Source: Alistipes sp.
Lineage (GTDB): Bacteria > Bacteroidota > Bacteroidia > Bacteroidales > Rikenellaceae
Direction: 5' to 3'
Length of the DNA stretch: 64,000 nucleotides
Assembly: GCA_045543935.1 (NCBI GenBank)
Contig: JAZPYA010000039.1
Coordinates: 102,292 to 166,291 of the forward strand
Position 1 is the first letter of the stretch. Each line of letters opens with the position of its first letter. Under the pieces are notes generated by a model that made no database searches, was not told the origin of the DNA, and worked only from the letters and a program-made list of their open reading frames with translations. This document shows, piece after piece, positions 6,913 through 33,463 of the stretch. The translations under genes and the position numbers were made by a program.

Positions 6913-6947
6913 CTAACCATTAGCTATTAGCCATTGGCCATTAGCTC
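6913..6947. repeat. Heptamer array, TTAGCCA/TTAGCTA family
   Basis: ctaacca ttagcta ttagcca ttggcca ttagctc in the rpsI-rpsB spacer. Confidence 0.85.
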
Positions 6948-7038
6948 TATATAATAATATAAGTATAAGTGGTCTTGCTGACTTTCGTAAACCCTTGTCG
7001 TGCTTTGCCGATTTGTTAGTCTGCTTGCGAAATAAAAA

Positions 7039-7425
7039 TTAACGCTTGCTGAACTGGAACTTACGACGTGCACCAGGCTGTCCCGGCTTCTTACGCTCAA
7101 CCTCACGGGCATCACGAGTAAGGAATCCGTTCTTTTTCAAAACAGGACGATACTCTGCGTTAATCTCGCACAATGCGCGAGCGATACCCATACGAGCGGC
7201 CTCTGCCTGACCCTTGATACCACCACCTACGAGGTTTACAACAACATCGTAAGCCTCAGCAGTCTCGGTTACGAGCAATGGCTGCTTAACCTCGTACTGC
7301 AAGATGTTCAATGGGAAATAGACATCGAGAGCCTTGTGGTTGATTGTAATGTTACCAGTTCCCGGCTTCACGAATACGCGAGCTACAGCTGCCTTACGGC
7401 GACCAACTGTGTTTACAACTTCCAT
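7039..7425 (-). CDS. rpsI: 30S ribosomal protein S9
   Basis: [10 protein letters not shown] ... [18 protein letters not shown]. Confidence 0.98.
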
Positions 7426-7430
7426 AATTC

Positions 7431-7886
7431 TTACTTAATCTCGTTTAACTTAATTTGCTTTGGGTTCTGAGCTGCGTGCGGATGCTCTGCACCAGCATAA
7501 ACCTTCAAGTTTTTGATAATAGCCTCTCCAAGACGAGTCTTTGGCAACATACCGCGAACTGCCTCTTCGATTACGAACTCAGGTTTCTTTGCCAAATATA
7601 AGGCAGGAGTAGCGAAACGCTGACCACCCGGATAACCGGTGTGGCGGACATAGACCTTGTCGGTCAACTTCTTACCAGTGAGCTTCACCTTCTCGGCGTT
7701 CACAACGATAACATAGTCACCGCAGTCAACGTGAGGGGTGTAGCCCGGCTTGTTCTTACCGCAGAGAATCTTAGCGACCTGCGAAGCCAAGCGACCCAAT
7801 ACCTCGTTGGTAGCGTCAATGACAACCCACTCCTTGTTGACTGTTTCAGCATTCAACGAGATAGTTTTGTAACTTAATGAATCCAT
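7431..7886 (-). CDS. rplM: 50S ribosomal protein L13
   Basis: W.VIDA...[28 protein letters not shown]. Confidence 0.98.
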
Positions 7887-7938
7887 CTAATACTTGTTAA
7901 AAAATTTATGTAATCCAACCTCGCACTTTGCGAGTGCG

Positions 7939-7946
7939 CAAAGGTA
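7939..7946 (-). promoter_or_regulatory. Bacteroidota -7 promoter box of the rplM operon
   Basis: TACCTTTG on minus strand followed by the GCACTCGCAAAGTGC leader hairpin. Confidence 0.75.
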
Positions 7947-8007
7947 CGAAGATTTTTTGAATTACACAACTTTTTTAATAATTAAAAAAACATAAAGTTT
8001 TTATCTG

Positions 8008-8028
8008 TTAGCCATTAGCTATTAGCAG
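8008..8028. repeat. Heptamer array, TTAGCCA/TTAGCTA family
   Basis: ttagcca ttagcta ttagcag. Confidence 0.75.
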
Positions 8029-8077
8029 TTTTTTTGTGCCGTGCTTGATCGCATTACACAGATACTCCCCCCACAAA

Positions 8078-8257
8078 CACGGGTATCGAAAACGATACCC
8101 GGCACAAAAGGGGACACACACCATACGCCCAATCAAGCCCACACCTAAAAAAAACACGGGTATCGAAAACAATACCCGGCACAAAAGGGGACACACGCCA
8201 CACGCCCAATCAAGCCCACACCTAAAAAAATACGGGTATCGAAAACGATACCCGGCA
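8078..8257. repeat. About 76-77 bp tandem repeat carrying three GGGTATCG-AAAA-CGATACCC hairpins (REP-like)
   Basis: Hairpins start at 8081, 8158 (1 mismatch), 8234; the two linkers are nearly identical. Confidence 0.9.
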
Positions 8258-8271
8258 ATAATATAGAAGCG

Positions 8272-8316
8272 TTCTTAATTCTTAATTCTTAATTCTTAAT
8301 TTTTAATTCTCAATTC
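8272..8316. repeat. Heptamer array, TTCTTAA/TTTTTAA/TTCTCAA family
   Basis: Six tandem units directly after the stop codon of the 8319-8831 gene. Confidence 0.9.
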
Positions 8317-8318
8317 CC

Positions 8319-8831
8319 CTACAAGTATCCCTTCATCTTGTCTGGTTCGGCACAGGCGATAACGATATTTTTATCGTTCCACTTGCGGATAAGGAAGAGA
8401 TTTTCCGAGCCGGTGGCATAGAGCGAAAACGAGCCGATACTGCGAGTGTAGTACTTACCATAGTAGCCGAACAAGCCACCTACCCCACAAGTACGAATTG
8501 CGCCACGCATAGCATTTGCGGGCAGTTGCTCCACGCTCTTTATCTCCTCTCGATTTATCACAACACTCTGATAGCGGCGCAAGATAACAATCTGATTCTC
8601 TCCTATCTCCAGACGCTGCGGAGCCAGCCCCTCGCACGCCAACATCGTGGGCAACATTATGAGATTGAAGACGATAAGCCCTACCAACGACTCTGTATTT
8701 CCTGCTTGTGTAAATATCTCATAGAGCATAAACGCAGATACGCCCACCCAAAGGATAAAGAAGGAGAAGGTTATCACCCACACACTCTTGCTCCACACAA
8801 ACGGCACGGTATAGAACTGCTTTTTACTCAT
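8319..8831 (-). CDS. Membrane protein with bacterial PH-like domain
   Basis: Two N-terminal TM segments; RTCGVGGLFGYYGKY motif. Confidence 0.75.
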   Translation of the reverse strand: MSKKQFYTVPFVWSKSVWVITFSFFILWVGVSAFMLYEIFTQAGNTESLVGLIVFNLIMLPTMLACEGLAPQRLEIGENQIVILRRYQSVVINREEIKSVEQLPANAMRGAIRTCGVGGLFGYYGKYYTRSIGSFSLYATGSENLFLIRKWNDKNIVIACAEPDKMKGYL

Positions 8832-8845
8832 AATTTTTTTGGCTT

Positions 8846-8925
8846 TTAGCCATTAGCCATTAGCTATTATTTTTAATTTTTAATTTTTAATCCTCAATTC
8901 TCAATCCTCAATCCTCAATTTAATG
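8846..8925. repeat. Compound heptamer array (TTAGCCA x3, then TTTTTAA/CTCAATC units)
   Basis: ttagcca ttagcca ttagcta ... ttttaat ttttaat cctcaat tctcaat cctcaat cctcaat. Confidence 0.9.
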
Positions 8926-8932
8926 CTCCGCA

Positions 8933-10714
8933 TTAGAACTGCACCTTCACACCCACCGTAAACGATGCGCCCAACTCGCGATAGAATGCCCAACGATATG
9001 TAGGCATCACATCGCCAAGCAGGTTTTTACCCTCGGCATATATGGTGCAAGTCTTATTCACGCGATAATCGGCATAGAGACTCAAATCGAGCGACACTGG
9101 AGCATAAAAAGTTCCCGTCTGTGCCGGCATAGCCAAACCGAAAAGCGAATAGTCCTGCACATAGGTCCATCTTGTCGAGCCATACAACTCTGCCGACAAT
9201 CCAAGCGTAAATTTCTTGTGAGTATATCGCGCCTTCAACAACGCCTCGACATCAGGCAAGGCGTCTTGTACGCTTGCAAAGTTGGTATAGAGCGAGCCTT
9301 TCACCTCGGCCGTAAGCAACAACTGCGAGATAGGCTTGTAATCTACCGCACCGCACAATGACCAGATATTGCGTTTTGCGCTCTCCACACCGAAGAAAAT
9401 CTGGTTTATATTGTACCAATAGAGGGCATTTTTCATAAACGACATATTGGCATAGAAGCGGTATGCAAACTTACTGCTTGCCGAGTGTCCCGACACTCCG
9501 AAACGCACATTCCACAGCTCAGTGTTCGGCAATACGGTATTTGCCGTTAGAGAGCCATCGGCACCACCCAAAATTGCAACATACGGATTACGGCGCACCA
9601 ACGAGTAATAGCTATTATTCTGCAACTCGCCATCAACCTCCACATACGGCACAAACGAGCCTTTATCGTTGATATTCAGCGACATTGTCACATACGGAAA
9701 GGCGTGCCATCTGTTCTGCTTTTGAGTGTCGGCAGGGTTGTAGTCATACAGCACTTTGGCTCCTATGGTCAAATCTAACAGACCTCCTGAGCGATAGCGG
9801 TACAACAGTTTTCCGCCAACAATAGAGTTGTTATACACCTTCAGCGAACGCAAGCCATAGTAGCCTTTATAGTCGATATCGAAAGACAAAGCACTGCGTT
9901 TGGTAATCTCGCGCGCCAACGCCAAGCCTCCCGTAACATTCATCTGCTGATAGCGTTCGTTTTCTATGAAACGCTCCGACTTATCGTTATAGAAATCGGC
10001 CGAGGCATAGACCTTGAAATTGAGGTGTCCGTAATCGGCAAACGAATCGCCAAACGACAACGACAAATTCACATCCTCGAAGTCGATTTTTCGGCGTTTA
10101 TACTCCAATAGAGGTACTTTCGTCCCATCTGCGTCATACTCGTACTCGTTGTGCAGAGGATAGCGATGATAGGTATCCATACGATAGAACAAGTCGCCCG
10201 CCAAGGTGTAGCGACCAAAGTACTTACCACCCATAACACCGAACTTATTGTTCATCTGCATTGAGCGATTATCCTTGTACGATTTTCCATCGAAGGTATT
10301 TTCATAACGCAACTTCGAGTATTGTGCGTAGTGCTGGGCATAACCTGTCAAATATCCCACATCTGCACGATGCGTTGTGGCATACAAGTCACCCACCGTA
10401 TTTGGATATCCTGCACCCAACTTCAAATAGAAAGGATAGTTGCGATTATACTCCCAATAGGTCACCGTTGCAGGCTTGAAGCGATGCGTGCCGAGAGCCG
10501 ATGCAAACGAGCGTGGCGTAATCGTATAGTCAATTTCGGGGCGCAAAGTGATTGTATCGACCATATTCGGAGCGATATCCATCTTGTGCGCCGTTCCTAT
10601 TTCGGGGGCGTAATCCTTTGTTACCTCGACCTGTTTTGCTACTTGCGCCGATGCCGAGAGCGACACCATACATAGCGCAATAAGTGTTGTTATATATCGT
10701 TTCATAATAGCCAC
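8933..10714 (-). CDS. Outer-membrane beta-barrel (TonB-dependent-receptor-like) partner of the TPR protein
   Basis: Signal peptide, EVTKDYAPEI N-terminal motif, amphipathic strands, terminal Phe (GVKVQF). Confidence 0.75.
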   Translation of the reverse strand: MAIMKRYITTLIALCMVSLSASAQVAKQVEVTKDYAPEIGTAHKMDIAPNMVDTITLRPEIDYTITPRSFASALGTHRFKPATVTYWEYNRNYPFYLKLGAGYPNTVGDLYATTHRADVGYLTGYAQHYAQYSKLRYENTFDGKSYKDNRSMQMNNKFGVMGGKYFGRYTLAGDLFYRMDTYHRYPLHNEYEYDADGTKVPLLEYKRRKIDFEDVNLSLSFGDSFADYGHLNFKVYASADFYNDKSERFIENERYQQMNVTGGLALAREITKRSALSFDIDYKGYYGLRSLKVYNNSIVGGKLLYRYRSGGLLDLTIGAKVLYDYNPADTQKQNRWHAFPYVTMSLNINDKGSFVPYVEVDGELQNNSYYSLVRRNPYVAILGGADGSLTANTVLPNTELWNVRFGVSGHSASSKFAYRFYANMSFMKNALYWYNINQIFFGVESAKRNIWSLCGAVDYKPISQLLLTAEVKGSLYTNFASVQDALPDVEALLKARYTHKKFTLGLSAELYGSTRWTYVQDYSLFGLAMPAQTGTFYAPVSLDLSLYADYRVNKTCTIYAEGKNLLGDVMPTYRWAFYRELGASFTVGVKVQF

Positions 10715-13704: not shown

Positions 13705-13740
13705 ACTATATTTCTTAATTTAGGCAAAAATACAAAAAAT

Positions 13741-13773
13741 AATTGACAATTGACGAATTGACAATTGATAATT
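13741..13773. repeat. Heptamer array, AATTGAC/AATTGAT family
   Basis: aattgac aattgac g aattgac aattgat aattaaa. Confidence 0.85.
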
Positions 13774-13916
13774 AAAGGTATTTTTTATTTTTATAACTTT
13801 TGGCTCTGCACTTTCAACTTTAAACTCGCTCTCTGCGCTTTAACAACGGAAGGAGTCTTCAAAACAAAAAAGAGCGGAGAAAATCTCCACTCTCAACCCT
13901 AAAATGTTGGTCAGGA

Positions 13917-14261
13917 TTAGTTCTGTGCCGGAGTCTCGGCAGGAAGCTCTGCCTGTGGCATCTCTACAGTTTGCTCGGTAGCAGGAGCCGAAAGCATCTC
14001 GATATCGCTCGATACGCCCGACTTACCAGCCTCGTTCAACTTGCTGCTAATGAAGATTGTCGAAAGAAGCGACAACACCAAAATTACAGTTGCAGCTCCC
14101 CAAGTAAACTTCTCCAAGAAGTCGGCTGTCTGACGAACACCCATAACCTGATTCGATGCGCCAAAGTTAGCGGCCATACCACTCTTTGGGTTCTGAACCA
14201 ATACTGCAAGTACCAACAAAATACTTGCGATAATAACCAATACAATCAAAAATGTGTACAT
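13917..14261 (-). CDS. secG: Preprotein translocase subunit SecG
   Basis: VLVQNPKSGMAANFG ... DFLEKFTW; start placed at MYTFL. Confidence 0.92.
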   Translation of the reverse strand: MYTFLIVLVIIASILLVLAVLVQNPKSGMAANFGASNQVMGVRQTADFLEKFTWGAATVILVLSLLSTIFISSKLNEAGKSGVSSDIEMLSAPATEQTVEMPQAELPAETPAQN

Positions 14262-14277
14262 AACTCTATTCTGTTTT

Positions 14278-14664: not shown

Positions 14665-14672
14665 AGGGAGAG

Positions 14673-14749
14673 AATTCAAAATGCAAAATGCAGAATGCAA
14701 AATTCAAAATTCAAAATTCAAAATGCAGAATGCAAAATTAAGAATCAAA
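14673..14749. repeat. Heptamer array, AATGCAA/AATGCAG/AATTCAA family
   Basis: About 10 tandem units between lptE stop and the next start codon. Confidence 0.92.
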
Positions 14750-14803
14750 AGCCAAATAAATAAAAAATACCATTAATTGTCAATTTGGAAACTCCGTTTT
14801 CCG

Positions 14804-15313
14804 TTACCAATTCGATGCTGCGGCCATAAATATATCGGTCACAAGTTGCTCCACAATCTCCGGAATCAAAGTACTCTCGACCTCGGTCAGCAACTTTGTT
14901 GAGTCGTAGTCTGCATAAGCCGAGAATGAACGCGCCTTAAATGAAGCCTTATCATCGATAACATTCGTAAAATTGACCTTTACCGTAATTGTCAATCGGT
15001 TTTGCAGGGCATAGTCGCCACTCGACACCGAAGATGTTGTCGAGGTATAACCCACAATCTCGCCCTCGAAAGCGAAATCGCCACCTTCAGGCACTTGCAC
15101 AAGGCGTGTTCGTGTAGCAAAACGCTGGGTGAGTTCATCGGTCAGCGTTGCACTCAAAATAGGAGCAACCATCGGAGCGTTATTCGGAAAATATGCCACC
15201 GAGAAGGTCTTTGCATCGGGCGGAATCGAAGCACCCGACAATGTATATTTAACCGTACAACTGCTTGTAGCCAAAAGCATTAAGGCGCACAATGCAAAAA
15301 GTAACTTTTTCAA
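14804..15313 (-). CDS. lptE: LptE-family lipoprotein
   Basis: Lipobox TSSC, SGASI, TITVKVNF; TTG start abutting a heptamer array. Confidence 0.85.
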   Translation of the reverse strand: MKKLLFALCALMLLATSSCTVKYTLSGASIPPDAKTFSVAYFPNNAPMVAPILSATLTDELTQRFATRTRLVQVPEGGDFAFEGEIVGYTSTTSSVSSGDYALQNRLTITVKVNFTNVIDDKASFKARSFSAYADYDSTKLLTEVESTLIPEIVEQLVTDIFMAAASNW

Positions 15314-15347
15314 ATTAAAAATTAAGAATTAAAAATTAAAAATTAAA
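15313..15347. repeat. Heptamer array, AATTAAA/AATTAAG family
   Basis: Five tandem units. Confidence 0.85.
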
Positions 15348-15381
15348 CTACTCTCTACTCGCTAATTAAAAGTTTTCCGTT

Positions 15382-16587: not shown

Positions 16588-16598
16588 TTTAGTTCATT

Positions 16599-17261
16599 CT
16601 ATTCATTTATAACTTGTCCGGGTATCACGCGCAAAGCGTCCATTGTCGCATCATCATCTGCCACGCCGAGATTAGAGACATACCAACCATAGCCGATACC
16701 CACCAATGCCAACAAAAGTATCACTATCGCCACCACCATCACAACATCAACCTTCTTACGAGGTTTGGTAGGGGCTTTAGGGGCATTAGAGGCATTAGAG
16801 GCATTAGAGGCGTTAGAGGCGTTAGGGGTTTCCTTTTCACTACCTACGCTCTTGCTCTTCTCGTTTTCAGTTTTCCGTTCTCCGTTTTCCGTTTCCGAAA
16901 CTTGTTTCGGAATGTACGGTGTCTGCTTTGGCAGTTCAACCTGCTCAACGGGTGGATAGAGTCGCAGCACCTTTGTCGAAGGCTCTATGCGGAGTGTTCC
17001 AATCTCTCCCAAACGGCAATATCCGTACTGCTCCAATTCGTGACGCACCTCAAACAGAAATCTATCCAAAGTGACCGCCACCTCCATCTCATTAAGCCCT
17101 CTGTCGCGCAACAATGAGGTTAGTACGCCATCATCGGTATTCAACAAGTCGGAGAAGATACGCTCGCCCGACTCCTTGACCATAAACGCGCCAAAGTTCG
17201 GAACTACCAATCTGCGATTTGTTTGCAGATACCCTGCTATTACCTCAACAACAATGCTCAT
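16599..17261 (-). CDS. HU-like (CCDC81-type) domain protein with C-terminal TM segment
   Basis: LVVPNFGAF and LGEIGTL HU-like motifs; linker built from 7-mer and 9-mer DNA repeats. Confidence 0.65.
   Translation of the reverse strand: MSIVVEVIAGYLQTNRRLVVPNFGAFMVKESGERIFSDLLNTDDGVLTSLLRDRGLNEMEVAVTLDRFLFEVRHELEQYGYCRLGEIGTLRIEPSTKVLRLYPPVEQVELPKQTPYIPKQVSETENGERKTENEKSKSVGSEKETPNASNASNASNASNAPKAPTKPRKKVDVVMVVAIVILLLALVGIGYGWYVSNLGVADDDATMDALRVIPGQVINE
16768..16897. repeat. In-frame 9-mer (TTAGAGGCR) and 7-mer (AACGGAR) arrays inside a CDS
   Basis: Encode NASNASNASNAP and ENGERKTENE. Confidence 0.85.
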
Positions 17262-17291
17262 ACAGTTAAAACGACAATAGTTGTCCTTTTA

Positions 17292-17690: not shown

Positions 17691-17809
17691 AATTTTCTGA
17701 TATATTTACGTTGTTACTTATTCCAACTCTAATATTTCAAACTACCGTCCTGCGAAATGGAGGAATTATGAAAAAAGACAAATCTTTACATTCCCTCCAA
17801 ACCTCCCTT

Positions 17810-18090
17810 TGGAAAAGGGCGGCTTAATCCTGCTTTGCAGGCTTTTCTATGTTTTGTTGTTTGCGCCTATTTTTTATGGCATTTAATGGCATTCGGGCTT
17901 GCAGCCCTGAATGGCATTGAATGGCAACGCACTCCAAAGGAGTGCTTAATGACAGGCGCATTTGCCATTCAGCGAGTGCAATGAGCGATTGTCATTTTGC
18001 CGCGGCCAATTCTCCATTTTGCATTTTGCATTCTGCATTTTGCATTTCCCTCCGCTTTCCGTTTCCCGTTTTCCGCTCTCCGTTTTTCGC
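17810..18090. repeat. Cluster of REP-like hairpins followed by CATTTTG and CCGTTTT heptamer arrays
   Basis: CCCTTT/AAAGGG, GGGCT/AGCCC and GCACTCC/GGAGTGC hairpins; AATGGCA repeats; arrays at about 18014-18045 and 18050-18090. Confidence 0.65.
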
Positions 18091-18206: not shown

Positions 18207-20441
18207 ATGAAAAAAACGCTACTTATCATTGGTACAGTGCTTATGGCGCTATCCGCCCAAGCAAAAGATTATGCAATTTCAACCCCTAACACAACTCTTA
18301 TCATCTCTGCCAAAGAGGGTGACACTCCCTACTTCAGATATTATGGCTCGCGTGCTGAGGTAGACGATGTGAAGGCTTCGGGTAGAGCACTTGTCAAGCA
18401 GGAGGCATACCCTGCGTACGGCACATATTGCCACAAACCGTTTGCCTCTCTTGTGAAGCAGTCCGATGGCGATAATGCTGTAAAACTCGTTGTTGAGCAG
18501 ATATCGGAAAGCACTAACGATAATTTTACCACCCTTTCGATTCTGTTGCGCGATATTGCGCACCCGACACTTGCTGTACGATTAAACTACTCGGCATACT
18601 CCGATTGCGATATCGTGAAGATAAATACCGAATATATCAACGAGGGCAAAAAACCTGTTATCTTACAAAAGTATATGTCGGCAGTACTGCCTATTCAATC
18701 CGACAATTGCGTGTTACTTCATCTTGAAGGTTCGGCACAGAATGAGTGTAACGAGATTGTCGAACCTCTCACAGATGGCGTTCGTGTAATATCGGCTCAA
18801 TCGGTGTCGCACATCTCGCAATATAGCAACGCATCGTTTATGCTCGGTCTTGATGGTCGTATTGACGAAACAAATTGCCCGGTAGTTGCAGGTACGCTTT
18901 TGTGGATGGGTAACTATCACTTTGAGTTCTATAATACTCTGTTGAATAAAGCAAGTACTCTCTTTATGGGAGGAATAAACCCAGCTGCAAGCGACTATAC
19001 TTTGGCGGGTAAAAAATCACTCGTAACACCTGAAATGGTATTTACATATACCACGAATGGTAAGGGTGAGGCTTCGCGCACACTTCATCGTTGGGCTCGC
19101 AAATACCAATTGCTTGACGGTACAAAGGAGCGTGAAATTCTGCTTAACTCATGGGAGGGTGTTAGATTCGATACCACCGAGGCTAATTTGAATCCGATGA
19201 TTACCGATTTTGCCGCCCTTGGAGGAGAGATGTTTGTTGTAGATGATGGTTGGTTTGGCGCAAAATATCCGCGTGATAACGACAAATCATCACTCGGAGA
19301 TTGGGATATTGCAACCTCAAAGTTGCCAAATGGTATTCGTCCTCTTATCGACCTTACTCATAGGAGTGGTATGAAGTTCGGTATTTGGATTGAGCCAGAG
19401 ATGGTTAATGTAAAGAGTGAACTCTACGAAAAGCACCCCGATTGGGTGGTGCGACACCCCGACTTCGAGCCAACCGCAGGTCGCGGAGGCGGACAGTTAT
19501 TGCTCGATTTAACCAACCCGAAAGTTCAGGACTTTGTCTTTGGCGTGGTTGATAAACTTTTGACCGAAAATCCCGATATAGAGTATATCAAGTGGGATAA
19601 CAATATGAGCATGCGCAATGCGCAATCTCTCTACTTGCCAAAAGGGTTGCAATCCAATTTGCAGGTCGATTATATACTCGGTCTTGAAAGTGTGTTGAAG
19701 CGAATTCGCGCCAAGTATCCTGATGTTATAATTCAGTTGTGTGCAGGTGGAGGCTCCCGATTGAATTATGGTTTTATGCCATATTTCCAGGAGATGTGGA
19801 CCAGCGATCAGACCGATGCTTATCATCGTATCCTAATCCAGTGGGGAGCAATGAACTTCTATCCTTCTAATATGTTGGCGGCACATGTGAGTTCTGCTCT
19901 CAATAAACATACTCAGCGACTTATCCCTATAAAATTCCGTTTTGATGTCGCTTCGATGTGCCGACTTGGAATGGAGATGGTGCCTTCACACTTAAACAGC
20001 GCAGAACGCGATTATGCGAAACGAGCAATTGCTGAGTATAAGAGCATTCGCCCGGTGGTACAACAAGGCGACCTTTACCGTTTGGTCTCGCCTTACGAGG
20101 GAGGTCGTAACTTCACATCTTTGATGTATGTTAATGAGGCAAAAGATAGAGCTGTACTATTCGCTTATCGTTTCCATTTCAGACGCGATATGTCAAATGT
20201 TAGACTTCGCCTACAAGGATTGAAAGAAGATGCGAAGTATCGTATTCGCGAGGTTACACCCGAATATGCAGATTTGCCGGCAGCGATTGACGGAAATATC
20301 ATAAGTGGTCGTATGCTTATGAATGAGGGTATTATATTGCCGGAACTTACAAGCAAACACAAGTTTAATCTTCAAGATAATGGTGTTCGAGCTATAAATG
20401 ATTACCGCAGTATTGTACTCGAACTTACCGAGGTTAAATAG
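18207..20441 (+). CDS. Alpha-galactosidase, glycoside hydrolase family 36
   Basis: Signal peptide MKKTLL; LLNSWEG, FVVDDGWFG, FGIWIEPEM, YIKWDNN, CAGGGSR, WTSDQTD. Confidence 0.93.
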   Translation: MKKTLLIIGTVLMALSAQAKDYAISTPNTTLIISAKEGDTPYFRYYGSRAEVDDVKASGRALVKQEAYPAYGTYCHKPFASLVKQSDGDNAVKLVVEQISESTNDNFTTLSILLRDIAHPTLAVRLNYSAYSDCDIVKINTEYINEGKKPVILQKYMSAVLPIQSDNCVLLHLEGSAQNECNEIVEPLTDGVRVISAQSVSHISQYSNASFMLGLDGRIDETNCPVVAGTLLWMGNYHFEFYNTLLNKASTLFMGGINPAASDYTLAGKKSLVTPEMVFTYTTNGKGEASRTLHRWARKYQLLDGTKEREILLNSWEGVRFDTTEANLNPMITDFAALGGEMFVVDDGWFGAKYPRDNDKSSLGDWDIATSKLPNGIRPLIDLTHRSGMKFGIWIEPEMVNVKSELYEKHPDWVVRHPDFEPTAGRGGGQLLLDLTNPKVQDFVFGVVDKLLTENPDIEYIKWDNNMSMRNAQSLYLPKGLQSNLQVDYILGLESVLKRIRAKYPDVIIQLCAGGGSRLNYGFMPYFQEMWTSDQTDAYHRILIQWGAMNFYPSNMLAAHVSSALNKHTQRLIPIKFRFDVASMCRLGMEMVPSHLNSAERDYAKRAIAEYKSIRPVVQQGDLYRLVSPYEGGRNFTSLMYVNEAKDRAVLFAYRFHFRRDMSNVRLRLQGLKEDAKYRIREVTPEYADLPAAIDGNIISGRMLMNEGIILPELTSKHKFNLQDNGVRAINDYRSIVLELTEVK

Positions 20442-20474
20442 TTAGAGGCGTTAGGGGCGTTAGAGGCGTTAGAG
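20441..20474. repeat. 9-mer array TTAGRGGCG
   Basis: gttagaggcg ttaggggcg ttagaggcg ttagag directly after the GH36 stop. Confidence 0.85.
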
Positions 20475-21096: not shown

Positions 21097-21128
21097 GCGC
21101 AAAAAACACTATTTTTGCGCTACCAATC

Positions 21129-21199
21129 AATTGATAATTGACAATTGATAATTGATAATTAAGGTAACTCTTAATTTTTAATTCTTAATTTTTAATTTT
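21129..21199. repeat. Two opposed heptamer arrays (AATTGAY, then YTTAATT)
   Basis: aattgat aattgac aattgat aattgat aattaag ... cttaatt tttaatt cttaatt tttaatt. Confidence 0.85.
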
Positions 21200-21241
21200 C
21201 GGTTGATAGCTAAATTGACACTTACTTAAATAAAAAATAGT

Positions 21242-24251: not shown

Positions 24252-25346
24252 ATGAAAAATTTTAACAGCGACTCTTCATCGGCGCTCTCGCGCTTTGCGA
24301 AAGACAAGCGTCTGCGTACAACAAAGACTAAAGACGAGAGACGAGAGACGAGAGAGGGTTTCAAGAGCGAGCGACCAAAGCGAGCATCATTTAACCCCAA
24401 TTTTACAGATGACAATCGCCCAAAGCGAGGAGTCGAGAACAGAAAACGGAAAACGGAAAACGGAAAACCGTTTAGACAAGAGCCTTCTTTCAAGACGAGA
24501 GACGAGAGACGAGAGACAAGAGAGGGTTTCAAAGGTGGTCGCAAGCCATTTGGCAAGAGCGAGGGTTACAAAGGCAAGGGCAAGCCAACTGCCGAGCGTA
24601 GTTATCCAAAATACAACCCTAACAAAGTTACGGGTGAAATCCGCTTAAACCGCTTTGTAGCGCAGTCAGGACTCTGTTCGCGCCGTGAGGCAGATGACTT
24701 TATCGCAGCAGGTTTGGTTAGCGTAAATGGCGCTATCGTAACCGAACTCGGCACAAAGGTTAAGCCTACCGATGTTGTAAAGTTTAACGATGAGCGTTTG
24801 CAGGGCGAGAAGAATGTATATCTCGTGCTGAACAAGCCGAAAGGCTATGTCACAACCCTCGAAGATGACCACGCCGAAAAGACCGTTATGGAGTTGGTAC
24901 AGAATGCTTGCAAGGAGCGTATCTATCCTGTTGGTCGTCTCGACAAGAACTCGTTGGGATTGTTGCTCTTTACCAACGATGGCGATATTACCCGCCAGCT
25001 GACTCACCCATCGTTGCGCAAGAAGAAGATTTACGAGGTTACACTCGACAAGGCGCTCACTCGTGCTGACTTCGAGCAACTTGCCGAGGGTATCACTCTC
25101 GAAGATGGCGATATCTACTTCGATGAAATCTCCTATATCAAAGACGATAAGAAGTCGGTGGGCGTAGAGATTCACTCAGGTCGCAACCGCATCGTGCGCC
25201 GTATGTTTGAGCATCTCGGCTACAAGGTTACAAAACTCGACCGTGTCTATTATGCAGGCTTGACAAAGAAGAACTTGAAGCGTGGTGCTTGGCGATTCCT
25301 CACCTCTGACGAGGTTGCACGCCTCAAAGCAGGACGCTACGAATAG
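24252..25346 (+). CDS. rluB: 23S rRNA pseudouridine synthase (RluB/RsuA family) with low-complexity N-terminal extension
   Basis: S4 domain RLNRFVAQSGLCSRREAD; YPVGRLD; GRNRIVRR. Confidence 0.9.
   Translation: MKNFNSDSSSALSRFAKDKRLRTTKTKDERRETREGFKSERPKRASFNPNFTDDNRPKRGVENRKRKTENGKPFRQEPSFKTRDERRETREGFKGGRKPFGKSEGYKGKGKPTAERSYPKYNPNKVTGEIRLNRFVAQSGLCSRREADDFIAAGLVSVNGAIVTELGTKVKPTDVVKFNDERLQGEKNVYLVLNKPKGYVTTLEDDHAEKTVMELVQNACKERIYPVGRLDKNSLGLLLFTNDGDITRQLTHPSLRKKKIYEVTLDKALTRADFEQLAEGITLEDGDIYFDEISYIKDDKKSVGVEIHSGRNRIVRRMFEHLGYKVTKLDRVYYAGLTKKNLKRGAWRFLTSDEVARLKAGRYE
24328..24522. repeat. Three in-frame heptamer arrays (GACGAGA twice, AACGGAA once) inside the rluB 5' region
   Basis: Encode DERRETRE twice and ENRKRKTENGK. 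Confidence 0.88.
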
Positions 25347-25375
25347 AGTTGAGAGTGGAGAGTTGAGAGTGGAGA
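25347..25375. repeat. Heptamer array AGTTGAG/AGTGGAG
   Basis: Four units starting at the base after the rluB stop codon. Confidence 0.85.
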
Positions 25376-25404
25376 GATTTCGATTTCTCCGCTCTTTTGT
25401 TTGA

Positions 25405-26466: not shown

Positions 26467-26467
26467 C

Positions 26468-27208
26468 TTATTCTACCAATCCACCAATGCGTTGGCGTAC
26501 AACTTCAAACAACATAATTGCCGCTGCTGCCGAGACATTCAACGACTCGATTGCGCCAATCATTGGGATAGCTAACTGCTCATCGCACAACTTCAAAACC
26601 TCCTTCGAGATACCGTTCTCCTCCGAACCCATAACGATAACAGTAGGCTTGGTCAAGTCGGCATCGTACATCAACTTTCGGCTATGCTCCGTAGCGGCAA
26701 CAATCTGGAAGCCCTCCGCCTGCAACGACTTCAAGGTGTTGCGGATAGAGCCGACACGCGCCACCGGAATACGGGTTAAAGCGCCTGCCGAAGAGCGAAT
26801 AGAGTCGGCATTTACAGGAGCCGAATTTTTCAGCGAGGAGATAATGCCGTGCGCTCCGGCGCACTCTGCCGAACGGGCGATACCGCCAAAGTTACGCACA
26901 TCTGTAACATTGTCAAACACCACGATAAGTGGAGTTTCGTCATCGGGAACACGCTCCAAGATATCGGCAACCTCGACATAATCAATCGCTGCAATGATAG
27001 CCACAACGCCCTGATGGTTTCCGCGAGTCATTCGGTTGAGTTTCTCGACAGGAACCTCCTGATAGTGACGGCGATGGCGATAGCAGAGGTCTTTGAGGTC
27101 GGTCATCAACTGCCCCTCTGCACCTTTGCGGATATAGATTTTCTCAATCTGCTTGCCCGACTCGATAGCCTCGGCTACGGGGCGAATACCAAAAACGATG
27201 TTCTCCAT
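26468..27208 (-). CDS. rlmB: 23S rRNA (Gm2251) 2'-O-methyltransferase
   Basis: NHQGVVA, VTDVRNFGGIARSAE, GSEENG, IESLNVSAA. Confidence 0.93.
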   Translation of the reverse strand: MENIVFGIRPVAEAIESGKQIEKIYIRKGAEGQLMTDLKDLCYRHRRHYQEVPVEKLNRMTRGNHQGVVAIIAAIDYVEVADILERVPDDETPLIVVFDNVTDVRNFGGIARSAECAGAHGIISSLKNSAPVNADSIRSSAGALTRIPVARVGSIRNTLKSLQAEGFQIVAATEHSRKLMYDADLTKPTVIVMGSEENGISKEVLKLCDEQLAIPMIGAIESLNVSAAAAIMLFEVVRQRIGGLVE

Positions 27209-27209
27209 A

Positions 27210-29135: not shown

Positions 29136-29144
29136 CGTGCGTTA

Positions 29145-29792
29145 CTATGCGTTCAAAATATCAACTATCGCCTGCTCCTGATTCTCTGCATCAAAGACCG
29201 AGGAGCCTGCAACAATAACATCTACCCCTGCATCATAGACCTCTTTGGCGTTCTTTGCCGAGATACCTCCATCAATTTCAATCAGACAGTTATAGCCCTT
29301 TTCGTCAATCTCCTTGCGCAAAGCACGCACCTTGTCGAGCGAATCAGGCATAAATGACTGACCTCCAAAGCCCGGCTCTACGCTCATCACAAGCACCATG
29401 TCCACCTCCGACAAGTAGTCAAAAATCGCCTCGGCAGGGGTTGCCGGCTTTATGCTTACGCCCGCCTTTGCTCCTGCTGCGTGAATCTCGGCAATGGCAG
29501 CACGAGGATTGGCACACGCCTCGTGGTGGAAGGTTACATAATCAGCACCTGCCTCCACAAAACGCTTTACATATCTTTCAGGCTCGACAATCATCAAATG
29601 CACATCAAGTATCTTGTCGGTCGCCTTACGCACAGGCTTCATAACAGGAAATCCAAACGATATATTCGGTACAAACACACCGTCCATAACATCGATATGT
29701 ACCCACTCCGCAGCGGAGCGATCTACCATCTTTATATCGCGTTCAAGATTGCCAAAATCGGCAGAAAGTATCGAAGGCGCTACTATTCTCAT
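29145..29792 (-). CDS. rpe: Ribulose-phosphate 3-epimerase
   Basis: APSILSADF, HIDVMDG.FVPN, MSVEPGFGGQ, IDGGI. Confidence 0.97.
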   Translation of the reverse strand: MRIVAPSILSADFGNLERDIKMVDRSAAEWVHIDVMDGVFVPNISFGFPVMKPVRKATDKILDVHLMIVEPERYVKRFVEAGADYVTFHHEACANPRAAIAEIHAAGAKAGVSIKPATPAEAIFDYLSEVDMVLVMSVEPGFGGQSFMPDSLDKVRALRKEIDEKGYNCLIEIDGGISAKNAKEVYDAGVDVIVAGSSVFDAENQEQAIVDILNA

Positions 29793-29886
29793 ATTGTTTC
29801 TCTATTTTTTTTGCAAAGATAATAAAAAGAGCAGAGACCACGCAGTTCGACAAGATATTTTTTCTTTTTTGAAAAGACAAAGGTCG

Positions 29887-30426
29887 CTACTCTTGGAAGA
29901 GTCTCTGTTGAGGGTTGTTGTAGATATTGATAATAGAGGAGAGATTCTTGACTGCCCGATGTACCGTATATGCCGTGCCACCCTTTTCGCCCGTAAAGTA
30001 GGCAATTACAGCCGAGGAGTTATCGACAAGAAAATTATTGCGCACAGAGTATGCCATAACCGAGTATTTCGATGCAAGGCATACAACCTCTTCTGCCTCT
30101 GCCACAACTCGTTCAAAGAGTGAGCGTTGCGATTGCAAAAAGCGATTTTGCACTCCCTCGAATGGTACGACTGCCACTAATTGCAACCCCTTTAACTCAT
30201 CGCGCAACGATAGTACACACTCCGCAGCTGCGAGGTCAAATCCCACAGCCATACCACACAAGAAGATGCGATAGCCCCGAGCATATAACCCTCGCACGGC
30301 AACCGCCAACTCCTCGTTGCGACTACCATCGTAGGTGCGATGCCCCGTAAAACAAGCCGTTATTTCTCTATCGTATGCGATACCTATATATATTATAGAT
30401 TCTCCAAAAAATGGCGTGTCTAACAA
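29887..30426 (-). CDS. SLOG (YspA/DUF1273-like) protein; start uncertain
   Basis: CFTGHR, GMAVGFDL.AAE, VVPF, RNNFLVDNSS, GGTAYTV. Confidence 0.8.
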   Translation of the reverse strand: MLDTPFFGESIIYIGIAYDREITACFTGHRTYDGSRNEELAVAVRGLYARGYRIFLCGMAVGFDLAAAECVLSLRDELKGLQLVAVVPFEGVQNRFLQSQRSLFERVVAEAEEVVCLASKYSVMAYSVRNNFLVDNSSAVIAYFTGEKGGTAYTVHRAVKNLSSIINIYNNPQQRLFQE

Positions 30427-30473
30427 GTTTTCACATTGAAGACACGCCCTTTTCTACTCAAAGCATCTTTCGC

Positions 30474-30926
30474 CTATTTATTCTTGAGAATATCGCGAAT
30501 CTCTGTCAGCAATACCTCCTCCTTCGATGGAGCAGGAGGTGCAGGCGGAGTTGCAGGCTTCTCCTCTTCCTTCTTCTTCATGTTAGAAAGACGGGTTACG
30601 AACTTCACCAACAAGAATACGCAGAACGCAAGAATTGTGAAATCTACAACCTGCTGAATAAATGCTCCATAGTTCCAATATACAGGTTCCGATGGCACTA
30701 CGCCCTCATTCACAACCGATGCAGCAGCATCTTTGAGCGCAGCCAAATTAACCTTCAAATCCTTGAAATCGACATTGCCGAGCAACATTCCGATAGGAGG
30801 CATCAAGATATCATTCACAAGCGATGTAACAATCTTGCCGAAAGCGCCACCGATGATAACACCGACTGCCATATCCATCACATTGCCCTTAAGAGCGAAT
30901 GCCTTAAATTCCTTCAAAAATCCCAT
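30474..30926 (-). CDS. mscL: Large-conductance mechanosensitive channel
   Basis: [24 protein letters not shown] ... LLTEIRDIL. Confidence 0.97.
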
Positions 30927-30947
30927 AAGTCTAAGTTTTTATTAAAA

Positions 30948-30979
30948 AATTGACAATTGACAATTGACAATTGATAATT
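30948..30979. repeat. Heptamer array AATTGAC
   Basis: aattgac x3, aattgat, aattag. Confidence 0.88.
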
Positions 30980-31001
30980 AGAATCTATTTTTATTCAACA
31001 A

Positions 31002-31128
31002 TCTAAAAGTTGTATAACAAGAGGGATTTCAAGGCTTGCAAGGCGTTGAGTGCGCAGCATACTAAAGCGTATGTGAGCAACTCAACGACCGAAGCGTAAC
31101 GCAGAAATCACCTTGTTAGACGGCTTTT
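31002..31128. repeat. Dispersed structured palindromic element, copy B
   Basis: CAAGGCTTGC ... CGTTGAGT/ACTCAACG stem with ATACT..CGTAT ... AGCGTAACGCAG; outer IR ACAAG.G.GATTTC/GAAATC.C.CTTGT. Confidence 0.65.
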
Positions 31129-33247
31129 ATCCTACGATAAGCAACACCGCATCAGTGGCAACATTATCGCCCTCGGCAACAAGCACCTGCTGAACAGTAC
31201 CGTCATAGTCCGAAGTGATGGAGTTCTCCATCTTCATTGCCTCCAATACTGCAACCTCATCGCCAGCCTTAACAGCATCACCTGCCTTAACCTTCAACGA
31301 GATAACACGGCCCGGAAGTGGAGCAACTACCTTATTGCCAGCAACAGCCTTTGGTGCGGCTGCCTCTGCCTTCGGTGCAACAGGAGCATCGCCCAACTCG
31401 ATAAGCACAGCATCGGTAGCAACATTCTCGCCAGCAACAACCAAAATCTGCTTAACATAGCCTGCAGCGTCCGAAGTGATAGAGTTCTCCATCTTCATCG
31501 CCTCCAAAACTGCAACCTCCTGACCTACTGCCACTGCATCACCAACCTTCACCTTGAACTCGATAACCTTGCCCGGAAGTGGAGCAACGATAGTGTGTCC
31601 GGTGATTGGTTGCGACTTTGGCTCTGCAACTGCTACGGTTTCCTCCTTTGCAGGAGCCTCGGCGGCAACCTTTGCTTGATAAGCCTTTGTCTTAACACCT
31701 GTGAGGTATGGTTTCGCAACGAGTGGGAATAACTCGAGCAACAACTCCTCCTTCTCATTCTCTGCCAACTTCACACCACCTGCCTCTGGCAACTCTGGAT
31801 TTGGCTGATGCTGATACTTAGAGATATCGTAGTTGCTCTCCTCGCGAACACCGCAAATCTTGAAGCGGAATTCAGGGTCAATCTTCACAGGAGTCTCGCC
31901 GTACTCGCCCTTAACGAGGTTTACGAACTGATTGTTCTTGGTTGTGTACATCTCACGACCTGCCTTCAAGTCGAGTGCGCAGTTTACAGCCTGTGCGCCC
32001 ACAATCTGCGATGTAGGGGTTACAAGCGGTGGAAGACCAGCCGAAAGACGCACCTCCGGAATCAACTCCATAGCCTTTGGCAAGATATCCTCTGCCTTCA
32101 ATGCCTGCAACTGTGCAACCATATTCGAGTACATACCGCCAGGGATTTCAGCCTCCTGAACGAGTTTGTTAGGAGCAGGGAAGCCGAAATATGCCTCAAT
32201 CTTCTGTGCTGCATCGAGCAAAGTTGCGAAGTCCTCCTTCTCGGCAGCCTTCACTGCACGATTGAGTTGCTCCTCAACCTCAGCAGGTGTAGCGTCTGTG
32301 AGTGGGTTGAATGGCTTTGGTGCAGGCTTATCCTTACCAAATACCGAAACATTCAACTCGGTGCGGATATCCTTCAACTGCTCGTTAATCTTGGCTACAG
32401 CCTCCATATTTACGCCCATATCGATACCGAGCTTCTGGCAGAAGAGATATACCAACTCCAATGCAGGAGCGCCTGTACCACCACCAAACCACCAGCAGTT
32501 GGTATCAACCACATCAACACCTGCCGCGATAGCCGCATATACCGATGCAAGACCGTAGCCAGGAGTACAGTGTGTGTGGAAGTCGATAGGAACATTTACT
32601 GCAGCCTTCAACTTCTTGACAAGTGCGCTGACACGCTGTGGAGGAATCAAACCCGACATATCCTTAATGGTAATCATATCTGCACCCAACTCTGCCAACA
32701 CCTTCGCCTTCGACACGAAGTACTCATCGGTAAATACAGGAGCAGGATTCTTCTTACCCATCAATTTCTGCCAGAACGACAACTTTGGATATTTTGGATC
32801 TACGGTGTAGCAGACTGCGCAGTCGGCAATACCGCCATATTTCTTTACATACTTGATTGTCGATTTTACATTCTCAACATCATTCAAGCAGTCGAAGATA
32901 CGCATAATACCCAAACCGCTTTCGATAGAGTTGCGACAGAAGCCCTCGATAATCTCATCGGTATAAGGGGCATATCCGAAGAGGTTACGACCACGCGAAA
33001 GAGCGGTGAGTTTAGAGACATCGCCGACCTCCTTCTTGATACTCTCCAAACGATACCAAGGATTCTCGCCGAGGTAACGCATTACCGAGTCAGGTACTGC
33101 ACCACCCCACACCTCCATAGCATAGAAGTGCGCATCTTTGTAGTAAGGCAACACACGCTCAATTTCCGCCTGTGTCATACGAGTTGCGAAAGACGATTGC
33201 TGACCGTCACGCAAAGTCAAATCTCTGATTTTAAGTGTTTTAGCCAT
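31127..33247 (-). CDS. Pyruvate carboxylase B / oxaloacetate decarboxylase alpha-like carboxyltransferase with two biotinyl domains
   Basis: DLTLRDGQQS, EVWGGA, IKDMSG, HTHCT, IPGGMYSN, LVTPTSQIVG; EAMKMEN twice. Confidence 0.9.
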   Translation of the reverse strand: MAKTLKIRDLTLRDGQQSSFATRMTQAEIERVLPYYKDAHFYAMEVWGGAVPDSVMRYLGENPWYRLESIKKEVGDVSKLTALSRGRNLFGYAPYTDEIIEGFCRNSIESGLGIMRIFDCLNDVENVKSTIKYVKKYGGIADCAVCYTVDPKYPKLSFWQKLMGKKNPAPVFTDEYFVSKAKVLAELGADMITIKDMSGLIPPQRVSALVKKLKAAVNVPIDFHTHCTPGYGLASVYAAIAAGVDVVDTNCWWFGGGTGAPALELVYLFCQKLGIDMGVNMEAVAKINEQLKDIRTELNVSVFGKDKPAPKPFNPLTDATPAEVEEQLNRAVKAAEKEDFATLLDAAQKIEAYFGFPAPNKLVQEAEIPGGMYSNMVAQLQALKAEDILPKAMELIPEVRLSAGLPPLVTPTSQIVGAQAVNCALDLKAGREMYTTKNNQFVNLVKGEYGETPVKIDPEFRFKICGVREESNYDISKYQHQPNPELPEAGGVKLAENEKEELLLELFPLVAKPYLTGVKTKAYQAKVAAEAPAKEETVAVAEPKSQPITGHTIVAPLPGKVIEFKVKVGDAVAVGQEVAVLEAMKMENSITSDAAGYVKQILVVAGENVATDAVLIELGDAPVAPKAEAAAPKAVAGNKVVAPLPGRVISLKVKAGDAVKAGDEVAVLEAMKMENSITSDYDGTVQQVLVAEGDNVATDAVLLIVG

Positions 33248-33397
33248 AATCTTTTAATTATTTATTGATAAAATTCCAATTATTCCGTTATTTGTAATAA
33301 CAAATATAATAATTTTCAGTGAAAAAAACACAAAAAAGCGAAAAAAGTTACAAAACTTTACGCTTAAACAGACGAAATGAATGGAGAGATTTCTATT

Positions 33398-33463
33398 AGT
33401 GAGGAGTGAGGAGTGAGGTGAGAGGAGTGAGGTGAGAGGAGCGAGGAGTGAGGAGCGAGGAGG
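33398..33463. repeat. Heptamer array AGTGAGG/AGCGAGG with GGTGAGA variants
   Basis: About 9 units adjacent to the att hairpin; last array before the prophage. Confidence 0.88.

Follow-up and report, generated by a model that had tools for sequence, protein, structure and literature searches.

Heptamer arrays at the gene junctions of an Alistipes genome: a dense, oriented, multi-family mosaic with a nested 81-nt element

Introduction

A stretch of 64,000 nucleotides (nt) from the genome of Alistipes sp. (assembly GCA_045543935.1, contig JAZPYA010000039.1, positions 102,292 to 166,291; hereafter the window) carries short tandem arrays of seven-nucleotide units at many of its gene junctions, and the question raised by this locus is whether arrays of so many different units come from one process or from chance slippage at each site. 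A sequence-only reading of the window had favoured a common generating or mobilising process and had seen in it a candidate for an undescribed system. Bacterial heptamer repeats have been known since 1990, to our knowledge without any mechanism. Our analysis of the whole genome (1.985 Mb in 44 contigs, 97.7% complete) suggests, with a probability of roughly 0.55, that the arrays are the Bacteroidota form of the intergenic heptamer-repeat class, and that they are a largely selfish or neutral filler of spacers with the behaviour of mosaic repeats. The kind of repeat itself has already been described; this genome is a new and extreme member by its array density, with a multi-family mosaic and a structured element nested within the arrays.

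Enrichment of period-7 arrays and their unit families

Using Tandem Repeats Finder, about 22 period-7 arrays and two 9-mer arrays were located in the window, all of them between 6917 and 33462, with period-7 starts at 6917, 8008, 8272, 8846, 8869, 8889, 13741, 14673, 15312, 16862, 18015, 18051, 21129, 21171, 24332, 24438, 24493, 25345, 30948, and 33398, and 9-mer starts at 16769 and 20441; no period-7 array was returned for 33463-64000. The arrays and all of the unit families named in the sequence-only reading were present. Genome-wide, counting arrays of at least 3 copies, we obtained 627 at period 7 in comparison to 5, 38, and 5 at periods 5, 6, and 8, respectively, the 38 arrays of period 6 having no dominant or recurrent unit, and a further 78 and 53 arrays at periods 9 and 10. 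An order-3 Markov copy of the genome yielded 5 period-7 arrays, so that the excess of period 7 over periods 5, 6, and 8, on which the proposal of a common process depended, holds. The period-7 arrays are short (median 4.6 units, longest 28.6), and the total array length of 21 kb amounts to 8% of the intergenic DNA.

The unit repertoire is small: 44 canonical units were found, and the top 12 of these account for about 90% of the arrays. Among the top 15 units there were 11 links by a single mutation, where composition-matched random heptamers gave an expectation of 3.5 and never more than 10 in 300 trials. The dominant units, which include AACGGAA, AATTGAC, AATTAAA, and AGTTGAG, have no G-tracts, and G-rich units were confined to the 9-mer and 10-mer families. 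The shared grammar proposed earlier, RRY followed by G or T on the purine-rich strand, is obeyed by 35 of 43 families and describes 613 of 625 arrays, but random heptamers matched in composition conform to it in 50% of cases; as a descriptor it is thus weak, and the network of units one mutation apart is the better description.

The arrays are also organised above the level of the unit. Taking periods 7, 9, and 10 together, an array has a neighbouring array within 25 nt in 428 of 853 cases, certain partners being favoured, and the abutting compound arrays of the window (8846-8919 and 18015-18090) read as had been described. A dozen loci share a multi-family module around the AGTTAGG family, arranged as [GTTAGGGGC]n-GCGCC-T7-AGTGAGT-[AGTTAGG/AGATAGG]n-[AATTCTC]n-[AACTCTC]n-A7-[TTTTCCG]n, in which the first block is a 9-mer array; the 33-nt left arm of the module is identical at no fewer than six loci, and only the copy numbers vary. 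Several families have conserved flanks, such as AATTAAAGGTATTTTT at the 3' end of AATTGAC arrays, and dispersed repeats other than arrays are common to 315 of 910 spacers. Units were a little more uniform towards the gene, at the 5' end of the purine strand (0.46 in comparison to 0.65 mismatches per unit, p = 0.02), a weak effect. The small repertoire, the unit network, the recurrent modules, and the shared polarity described below argue for a common process rather than independent slippage, as had been proposed.

Placement and polarity

For placement, genes were taken from an ad hoc caller based on open reading frames (ORFs) and codon usage, which is crude (1516 genes, 87% coding) and gives exact stops and approximate starts. 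With these calls, 529 of the 627 arrays (about 85%) had no more than 20% of their length in coding sequence, spacers making up 13% of the genome, and a minority lay inside open frames. Array density was 2.8 per kb in tandem, 2.0 per kb in convergent, and 1.7 per kb in divergent spacers. Arrays within 3 nt of a stop codon numbered 86, in comparison to 38.5 expected from random placement within the spacer (z = 9, a 2.2-fold excess), whereas start codons showed no such excess (32 in comparison to 36.8 expected). Random placement is therefore rejected, and the earlier observation that arrays often begin right at a stop codon, made at 8316, 20441, and 25347, was borne out at these sites and across the genome.

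The arrays follow a shared polarity. Where the orientation switches between neighbouring arrays, a purine-rich array is followed by a pyrimidine-rich one in 123 cases and the reverse order occurs in 6, over more than 80 family combinations that include pairs of periods 7/9 and 7/10. With respect to genes, the purine-rich strand runs 5' to 3' away from the nearest gene, by 222:89 at stops and 210:108 at starts, and consequently the two arrays of one spacer face each other. The polarity is seen in single arrays as well and holds in tandem, convergent, and divergent spacers, the divergent class giving 77:39 for the direction away from the gene and 14:1 for the orientation switches. Spacer DNA outside the arrays has the opposite purine bias at start codons. 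Loci from other genomes followed the same trend (16:5). Some families are in addition biased with respect to transcription, AAAACGG being read in sense by 40:13 and AATTTTT by 38:13. The polarity and the stop-codon rule are real here and are not new, as both had been found for Xanthomonas and Nostoc by Rehm et al. in 2015 (PMC4692102).

The folding stability of facing arrays was also calculated. Purine-to-pyrimidine pairs folded at -13.0 kcal/mol in comparison to -9.0 kcal/mol for composition-matched shuffles, but randomly re-paired arms gave -13.6 and pairs with one arm reversed likewise -13.6. Any purine-rich array thus pairs loosely with any pyrimidine-rich one, and the idea of arrays as arms of specific, co-evolving hairpins was rejected. 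One array does take part in a hairpin resembling a terminator: the array at 25345 (25345-25376) provides with its last units the 5' arm of the hairpin at 25365-25396, which has a T-rich tail. The idea that the AGAGTGG and AACGGAA families were seeded by a dispersed terminator hairpin was considered and discarded, the hairpin being present at two loci only in the genome. Termination cannot be the general cause of the polarity, which is unchanged in divergent spacers.

Turnover among relatives and distribution

A syntenic block was compared with four relatives (L001, L002, L003, and L005), whose proteins are 62-98% identical. The results showed that array content differs between sister species at orthologous junctions. 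After the GH36 gene, where the window has a 9-mer array, the spacer is array-free and 19 nt long in L001 and 9 nt in L003, it is 162 nt in L002 with AAAACGG, AATGCAG, and 10-mer arrays, and it is 188 nt in L005 with AAAACGG arrays split by the element E95 described below. At the spacer 8832-8932 the flanks are kept in the window, L001, L002, and L005; the three array families vary in copy number among the window, L001, and L002, and are absent from L005. The spacer 21097-21241 is nearly identical in L001, and L002, L003, and L006 have AATGGCT units in its place. That relatives carry the same families at non-orthologous junctions, together with newly acquired DNA devoid of arrays, further supports one system. 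The suggestion that arrays act as recombination joints for gene cassettes found no support at the one site examined, the PH-domain gene 8319-8831, which lies between like arrays and is syntenic in L001, L002, and L005.

The wider distribution was surveyed in metagenome assemblies with a pattern of three consecutive ARTKRAN units, for which less than 0.1 match per genome is expected by chance and which covers only part of the unit families; the control for this pattern search was uninformative, as several units read nearly the same when reversed. Among 151 Rikenellaceae genomes the distribution was bimodal within genera, with tens to hundreds of matches in about 18 genomes of four genera and none in their congeners. 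All of the closest relatives carry arrays, graded from 55 to 298 pattern matches in comparison to 618 in the present genome, and thus no array-free close relative was available for subtraction of gene content. Of 301 Bacteroidota genomes at least 90% complete, 201 had one match or more and a dozen had 90 to 240, the present genome being the highest. In four genomes sampled from other genera, period 7 was dominant with partly other units (AAAATTG, AAAGTTG, AACCACT), and one of the four was rich in 9-mers.

The nested element E95

Within the arrays we found an element of 81 nt, E95, with the sequence AAYCCTGC...GCGTCGGTT, which is present in the genome in about 19 full-length copies and, in partial or variant form, about 25 times (e.g., C33:11088-11168). 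A full copy always follows TT within an array, and the array resumes in phase beyond it; five or more array families are hosts of this kind, and in other genera the element is nested in the heptamer arrays of those genera. An alignment of 15 copies from eight genomes (six surveyed genomes and those of L001 and L005) gave 16 consensus base pairs, 6 of them with compensatory changes, in two covarying hairpins; pairing was found in 97.1% of cells, in comparison to 83.8% in shuffles (0 of 500 reached the observed value) and 26-46% with slid partners. No Rfam 15 match at E <= 0.1 was obtained in positions 1-34000 of the window or in the E95-carrying sequences of L001, L002, and L005. The orientation of E95 with respect to flanking genes was 11:11, and an RNA element of the sense strand was accordingly rejected.

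By BLAST, E95 appeared in 13 of 18 array-rich and 4 of 22 array-poor genomes, but confinement to array-rich genomes was not upheld, as a covariance model found it in many genomes without ARTKRAN arrays. With this model the family extends to 84 of the 151 Rikenellaceae genomes and 21 of 31 genera; it is present in all 18 array-rich genomes without being restricted to them, and in some genomes (G073, G138) it forms tandem arrays with a period of about 85 nt. As regards the inverted ends and target-site duplication of miniature transposable elements, the ends of E95, AAYC...GGTT, are inverted over 4 nt, and the TT on its two sides could be either a 2-nt duplication or part of the element. E95 shares hairpins and insertion after TT with elements derived from IS200/IS605, but a Y1 transposase was not found in the 18 array-rich genomes, and no longer autonomous partner with E95 ends was present among the partial matches. 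E95 is a candidate for a new small mobile element or RNA.

Host DNA, prophage, and search for a maker

The host part of the window encodes S9, L13, a TPR protein, SecG, LptE, a sigma-54 activator, a GH36 enzyme, EngB, Prs, an RluB-like synthase, an ABC-F protein, and a carboxylase subunit. For the sigma-54 activator gene, the top matches reach up to 92% identity and are to Rikenellaceae/Alistipes genomes from animal-gut metagenomes. A heterocystous cyanobacterium, a known host of heptamer repeats, does not fit the sigma-54 activator and LptE, and the relatives are Rikenellaceae/Alistipes.

A prophage occupies the right half of the window (33719-64000, + strand), with a repressor-like gene and matches to a primase, a head maturation protease, and a tape measure protein, and without any array of these families. 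It lies within the largest array-free stretch of the genome, a gap of this size having a Poisson expectation of 0.007. From its 2.8 kb of non-ORF DNA, 6.7 arrays were expected and none was seen (P about 0.001), and for its 13 gaps of at least 40 nt the probability of no array was 0.0015. The absence of arrays from the 30-kb prophage, as had been noticed, is therefore beyond what its compactness predicts, and the arrays are not equally frequent in mobile DNA. Many host stretches of 13-28 kb are likewise array-free, and the simplest reading of the empty prophage is that arrays accumulate with residence time. The earlier thought of self-marking of the chromosome has no support besides the empty prophage, which short residence explains more simply. 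The second largest array-free stretch, C15:71443-99987, spans 28.5 kb at a G+C content of 0.415 and holds 22 same-strand genes of 350-430 residues, one of them for a flippase-like protein; the stretch is probably a polysaccharide locus subject to horizontal exchange.

Gene families that could make or mobilise the arrays were searched in 18 array-rich and 22 array-poor genomes. The Y1 transposase of REP-associated tyrosine transposases (RAYT; PF01797) as a mobiliser was found in 0 of 18 array-rich genomes with positive controls. Reverse transcriptase (RVT_1) as a maker occurred in 8 of 18 rich and 6 of 22 poor genomes, which is no correlation; repeats made by a retroelement would be expected to track it, and they do not. 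The Rpn nuclease (Transposase_31) and Ku of non-homologous end joining were each absent from all 40 genomes and were discarded. XisH was likewise not found in the 40 genomes, but the control of this search was silent and the result is thus uninformative. The sole reverse-transcriptase-like match of the present genome is weak (C39:176173-176349, 36 bits with its neighbours) and lies about 10 kb beyond the end of the window in the array-free stretch of the prophage; it may belong to a phage diversity-generating retroelement.

Arrays of the window and neighbouring sequences

From left to right, the first array is AATGGCT/AATAGCT with 4.1 copies downstream of rpsI (6917-6945, - strand), followed by AATGGCT with 2.7 copies (8008-8026, -) and by AATTAAG with 6.4 copies (8272-8316, -), the end of which is 2 nt away from the stop of the PH-domain gene 8319-8831. 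On the other side of this gene, a compound array (8846-8919, -) of AATGGCT (3.4 copies), AATTAAA (3.3), and GAGGATT/GAGAATT (4.4) forms 11 consecutive heptads in one phase. Between the second and third of the arrays, at 8075-8257, lies a 77-nt tandem repeat of 2.4 copies, each unit made of a perfect hairpin, GGGTATCG-TTTT-CGATACCC, and a GT-rich spacer; at least 10 copies of it were found on contig C17 (C17:16063-16700), and each unit scores as terminator-like. A CRISPR array was ruled out for this repeat, as its spacers resemble each other.

Further on are AATTGAC with 4.6 copies and the conserved 3' flank of its family, AATTAAAGGTATTTTT (13741-13773, +), AATGCAA/AATTCAA with 9.4 copies (14673-14738, +), and AATTAAA with 5.1 copies (15312-15347, +), the last of which extends up to the LptE gene and into its TTG start. 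The 68-nt spacer 15314-15381 consists of heptamer units of three families over its full length. At 15311-15316 the LptE gene has an apparent TTG start, where relatives have ATG. The called ORF 16599-17261 contains both a 9-mer array of TAGAGGCAT/TAGGGGCAT with 6.3 copies (16769-16825, +) and an AACGGAA array with 4.7 copies (16862-16894, -). The product of this ORF has a weak HU-like match and, at 36-69% identity to relatives, is less conserved than any other protein of the block; the arrays may have given rise to its C-terminal part, or the gene may end earlier.

The region before the GH36 gene is composite. A 70-nt piece, GCGAAATGGAGGAATTATGAAAAAAGACAAATCTTTACATTCCCTCCAAACCTCCCTTTGGAAAAGGGCGGCTT (17757-17830), is conserved at the same junction in L005, next to hisE, and has a GGAGGAAT/ATTCCCTCC hairpin around a possible ORF of 19 codons, MKKDKSLHSLQTSLWKRAA; it could be a leader peptide or a small RNA. 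It is followed by a 22-nt fragment of E95, with the 5' hairpin AATCCTGCTTTGCAGG (17826-17847, +), and by 10-mer repeats AATGGCATTT/AATGGCATTG around small hairpins (17872-17926, +), a composite that was found inverted in another spacer of L005. The compound array 18015-18090 (-), in which 4.7 copies of AATGCAA are followed by 5.7 copies of AACGGAA/AGCGGAA, occupies the divergent spacer upstream of the GH36 gene, and both of its sub-arrays point away from this gene. At the other end, the 9-mer array GTTAGAGGC with 3.8 copies (20441-20474, +) shares its first base with the last base of the GH36 stop codon. The next feature, 21129-21199, to which no single strand is assigned, is a purine-to-pyrimidine pair of AATTGAT (4.6 copies, +), the linker AAGGTAACTC, and AATTAAA (4.1 copies, -).

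At 24332-24523 (+), GACGAGA (3.4 copies), AACGGAA (4.4), and GACGAGA (4.4) lie inside the N-terminal extension of the RluB-like pseudouridine synthase. The three arrays are in frame, three units giving seven residues. The extension (24252-24640) is an open run of 125 residues rich in K, R, E, and G, with the segment KDERRETREGFK occurring twice and the S4 domain following from residue 131; intergenic-type repeats seem to have been taken up here into coding sequence. The remaining arrays are AGAGTTG/AGAGTGG with 4.6 copies, which begins in a stop codon and continues into the hairpin noted above (25345-25396, +), AATTGAC with 4.6 copies (30948-30979, +), and AGTGAGG/AGCGAGG with 9.3 copies (33398-33462, +), the last array before the prophage.

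Discussion

Copying of modules between spacers, combined with slippage and a constraint at gene ends, is in our judgement the most likely working model, at somewhat better than even odds. A small set of unit families linked by single mutations would be maintained, and arrays would be laid with one polarity, their purine-rich strand directed away from the nearest gene and often starting in or next to its stop codon. They would spread among spacers as pieces of recurrent composite modules that are copied and not created anew, and their sub-arrays would gain and lose units by replication slippage, which would set the copy number. Whole spacers would be replaced within the divergence time of sister species, the arrays would serve E95 as landing sites, in which it would insert after TT with the array phase kept, and recently arrived DNA such as the prophage would not yet have been colonised. 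Most arrays would then have no gene-specific function.

Several points weigh against this reading. The families searched in the 18 array-rich and 22 array-poor genomes yielded no enzyme that would write or mobilise the arrays. Slippage and module copying alone fail to explain a polarity that is tied to the gene end in every class of spacer, and the strand biases of the AAAACGG and AATTTTT families, along with the one array serving as a terminator arm, leave room for function. The repeat-bearing spacers studied by Rehm et al. were more conserved than controls (PMC4692102), unlike the turnover seen here. The gene calls were crude, and the survey pattern captured units of the ARTKRAN type only.

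The alternatives differ mainly in how they deal with the polarity and the modules. Independent microsatellite slippage at each locus, without spread and with the likeness of units coming only from the A+T-rich composition of spacers, would agree with the short arrays (median 4.6 copies) and with copy numbers that differ at the same locus between close relatives, but it leaves the lack of enrichment at periods 5, 6, and 8, the 12 units that make up about 90% of the arrays, the unit network above its composition-matched null, the conserved flanks, the polarity of 123:6, and the bimodal distribution among congeners without a cause; the narrow repertoire and the recurrent multi-family modules already contradict it, and we consider it very improbable. 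Even less probable is that the arrays mark the chromosome as self against foreign DNA or act as recombination joints for gene cassettes. The prophage is indeed the largest array-free stretch, and other array-free stretches are low in G+C, but residence time accounts for the empty prophage, many host stretches of 13-28 kb have no arrays either, no reader or effector is known or was found, and the gene 8319-8831, bracketed by like arrays, is syntenic in L001, L002, and L005.

Functional cis elements at gene ends, whether 3'-end hairpins or terminators, leaders for translation through S1, or insulators, with selection keeping the grammar and polarity, are a more serious rival, which we nevertheless hold to be rather unlikely. 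The S1 option is set in a phylum that does not use Shine-Dalgarno sequences. The abutment on stop codons, the sense bias of particular families, the folding of purine-to-pyrimidine pairs at -13.0 in comparison to -9.0 kcal/mol in shuffles, and the array at 25345 as the 5' arm of a terminator-like hairpin all speak for function, as do the proposal by MacGregor that S1, Csp (cold shock protein), or CsrA binds TAACTGA (PMC4679880) and the finding of Rehm et al. that transcripts start or stop at repeats above controls (PMC4692102). At housekeeping junctions, however, sister species have other families or no array, and most members of the Rikenellaceae thrive without arrays; the complementarity of real arms is not above that of re-paired ones (-13.0 in comparison to -13.6), the specific terminator hairpin is at two loci only, and divergent spacers, which need no terminator, have the same polarity (77:39, switches 14:1). 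A dedicated period-7 writer, which would lengthen 3' ends with purine-rich heptamers wherever a spacer is broken or nicked, so that both ends of a break are extended and then joined, is a doubtful prospect, whether the enzyme is taken to be a templated or slippage-prone polymerase or a pair of nickase and polymerase. It predicts the purine-to-pyrimidine polarity in all spacer classes (123:6), the replacement of whole spacers from stop to start, and a sharp boundary at gene ends, and it would suit a period that stays at 7 while the units drift between genera, the same rule in three phyla, and presence or absence at the level of the genome within genera. Among the 40 genomes, though, no candidate gene emerged, reverse transcriptase being uncorrelated and Ku absent; the recurrence of identical composite modules over many loci suggests that finished sequence was copied and not synthesised afresh, and the gradient of homogeneity along arrays is weak (0.46 in comparison to 0.65 mismatches per unit, p = 0.02). 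That the rule shared by Bacteroidota, Xanthomonas, and Nostoc is the footprint of one undescribed, oriented process of repeat writing at spacer breaks or nicks next to genes is a long shot. Copying of modules with slippage and a gene-end constraint remains the reading that we prefer.

The results bear on more than this locus. The heptamer class is phylum-wide in Bacteroidota and follows the same polarity rule as in two other phyla, and its arrays are able to fill 8% of the spacer DNA in a streamlined 2-Mb gut genome. With sister species ranging from almost none to more than 600 matches, array density varies as a quantitative trait, one open to mapping against gene content, and such mapping could make the question of a repeat writer testable; were there a writer, the Rikenellaceae clade, with its graded density and hundreds of gut metagenome genomes, would be the place for its comparative identification. 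Arrays and E95 alter spacers and even the tails of proteins, and they will have consequences for how gene ends are annotated, for assembly, and for the typing of strains of Alistipes-like gut bacteria.

Comparison with known systems

The short tandemly repeated repetitive (STRR) heptamers of heterocystous cyanobacteria are said to have been described by Mazel et al. in 1990 as intergenic and as having several families per genome. The present arrays are like them in these two respects and in the lack of an explained mechanism, and differ in phylum and units, there being no heterocyst or cyanobacterial context here, so that they do not qualify as STRR in the strict sense of host. Small dispersed repeats (SDR) nested in the tandem heptamers of Nostoc punctiforme, reportedly found by Elhai et al. 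in 2008, resemble E95 in being very small, multi-copy, supported in structure by compensatory changes, and placed inside heptamer arrays; E95 is 81 nt in comparison to 21-27 nt for SDR, has no sequence likeness to them, and occurs in at least 21 Rikenellaceae genera.

Mosaic behaviour is known from bacterial interspersed mosaic elements (BIME), repetitive extragenic palindromes (REP), and the hairpin-forming REP doublets (REPIN) of enterobacteria and Pseudomonas (PMC3116915), which share with the present arrays short intergenic modules in fixed orders, foldable inverted pairs, hundreds of copies, and a role as targets for other insertions. Here the blocks are tandem heptamer arrays and not single palindromic units, and the RAYT/Y1 transposase that marks REPIN was not found in the array-rich genomes searched. 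The MITE (miniature inverted-repeat transposable element) known as BrickBuilt in Porphyromonas gingivalis (PMC4596501) also belongs to the Bacteroidales, is strictly intergenic, and holds a tandem array in a small non-autonomous element; its unit is 23 nt with 19 copies, and it has a defined leader and tail with inverted ends, whereas most arrays here showed no fixed ends of this kind.

Comparable as well are the TAACTGA direct repeats reported by MacGregor in 2015 (PMC4679880) from Beggiatoaceae, cyanobacteria, and five Bacteroidetes, with a patchy distribution, other heptamers mixed in for Gramella, Aequorivita, Elizabethkingia, and Microcystis, and spacers that are shorter and repeat-free in relatives. 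They are, like the present arrays, intergenic direct repeats of heptamers with a patchy phylogeny. TAACTGA is not among the units here, and the repeats of the Guaymas Beggiatoa lie just upstream of starts in sense, unlike the start-proximal arrays of this genome, which are mostly antisense by their purine-rich strand.

A close parallel is provided by the intergenic heptamers of Rehm et al. (PMC4692102), GGGAATC in Xanthomonas and GGGGA(C/T)T in Nostoc PCC 7120. In those genomes the repeat is ORF-proximal on its 5' side for any orientation of the ORF, which places it on the coding strand after stops, with overlap of the stop included, and on the non-coding strand before starts; convergent inverted pairs occur, the preferred size is about 4 units, the Nostoc plasmids have no repeats, and repeat-bearing spacers are conserved above controls between two Xanthomonas species. 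As heptamers with the same rule had thus been published for Xanthomonas and Nostoc, and heptamer repeats for some Bacteroidetes (PMC4679880), the earlier description of an undescribed system does not stand. The present arrays have the marks of the intergenic heptamer class, namely an excess of period 7, an intergenic position, few units, although in more families than published, and the polarity. They agree with the heptamers of Rehm et al. in period, location, a size of about 4 units, the polarity and stop-overlap rule, and convergent pairs. The G-quadruplex trait of that subtype is missing, the dominant units here having no G-tracts. In general, the published genomes have one G-rich, quadruplex-forming unit each at about 90-190 loci in conserved spacers, while the Alistipes genome has a dozen mostly A+T-rich, non-quadruplex units at 627 loci in 2 Mb, arranged in multi-family mosaics with fast turnover.

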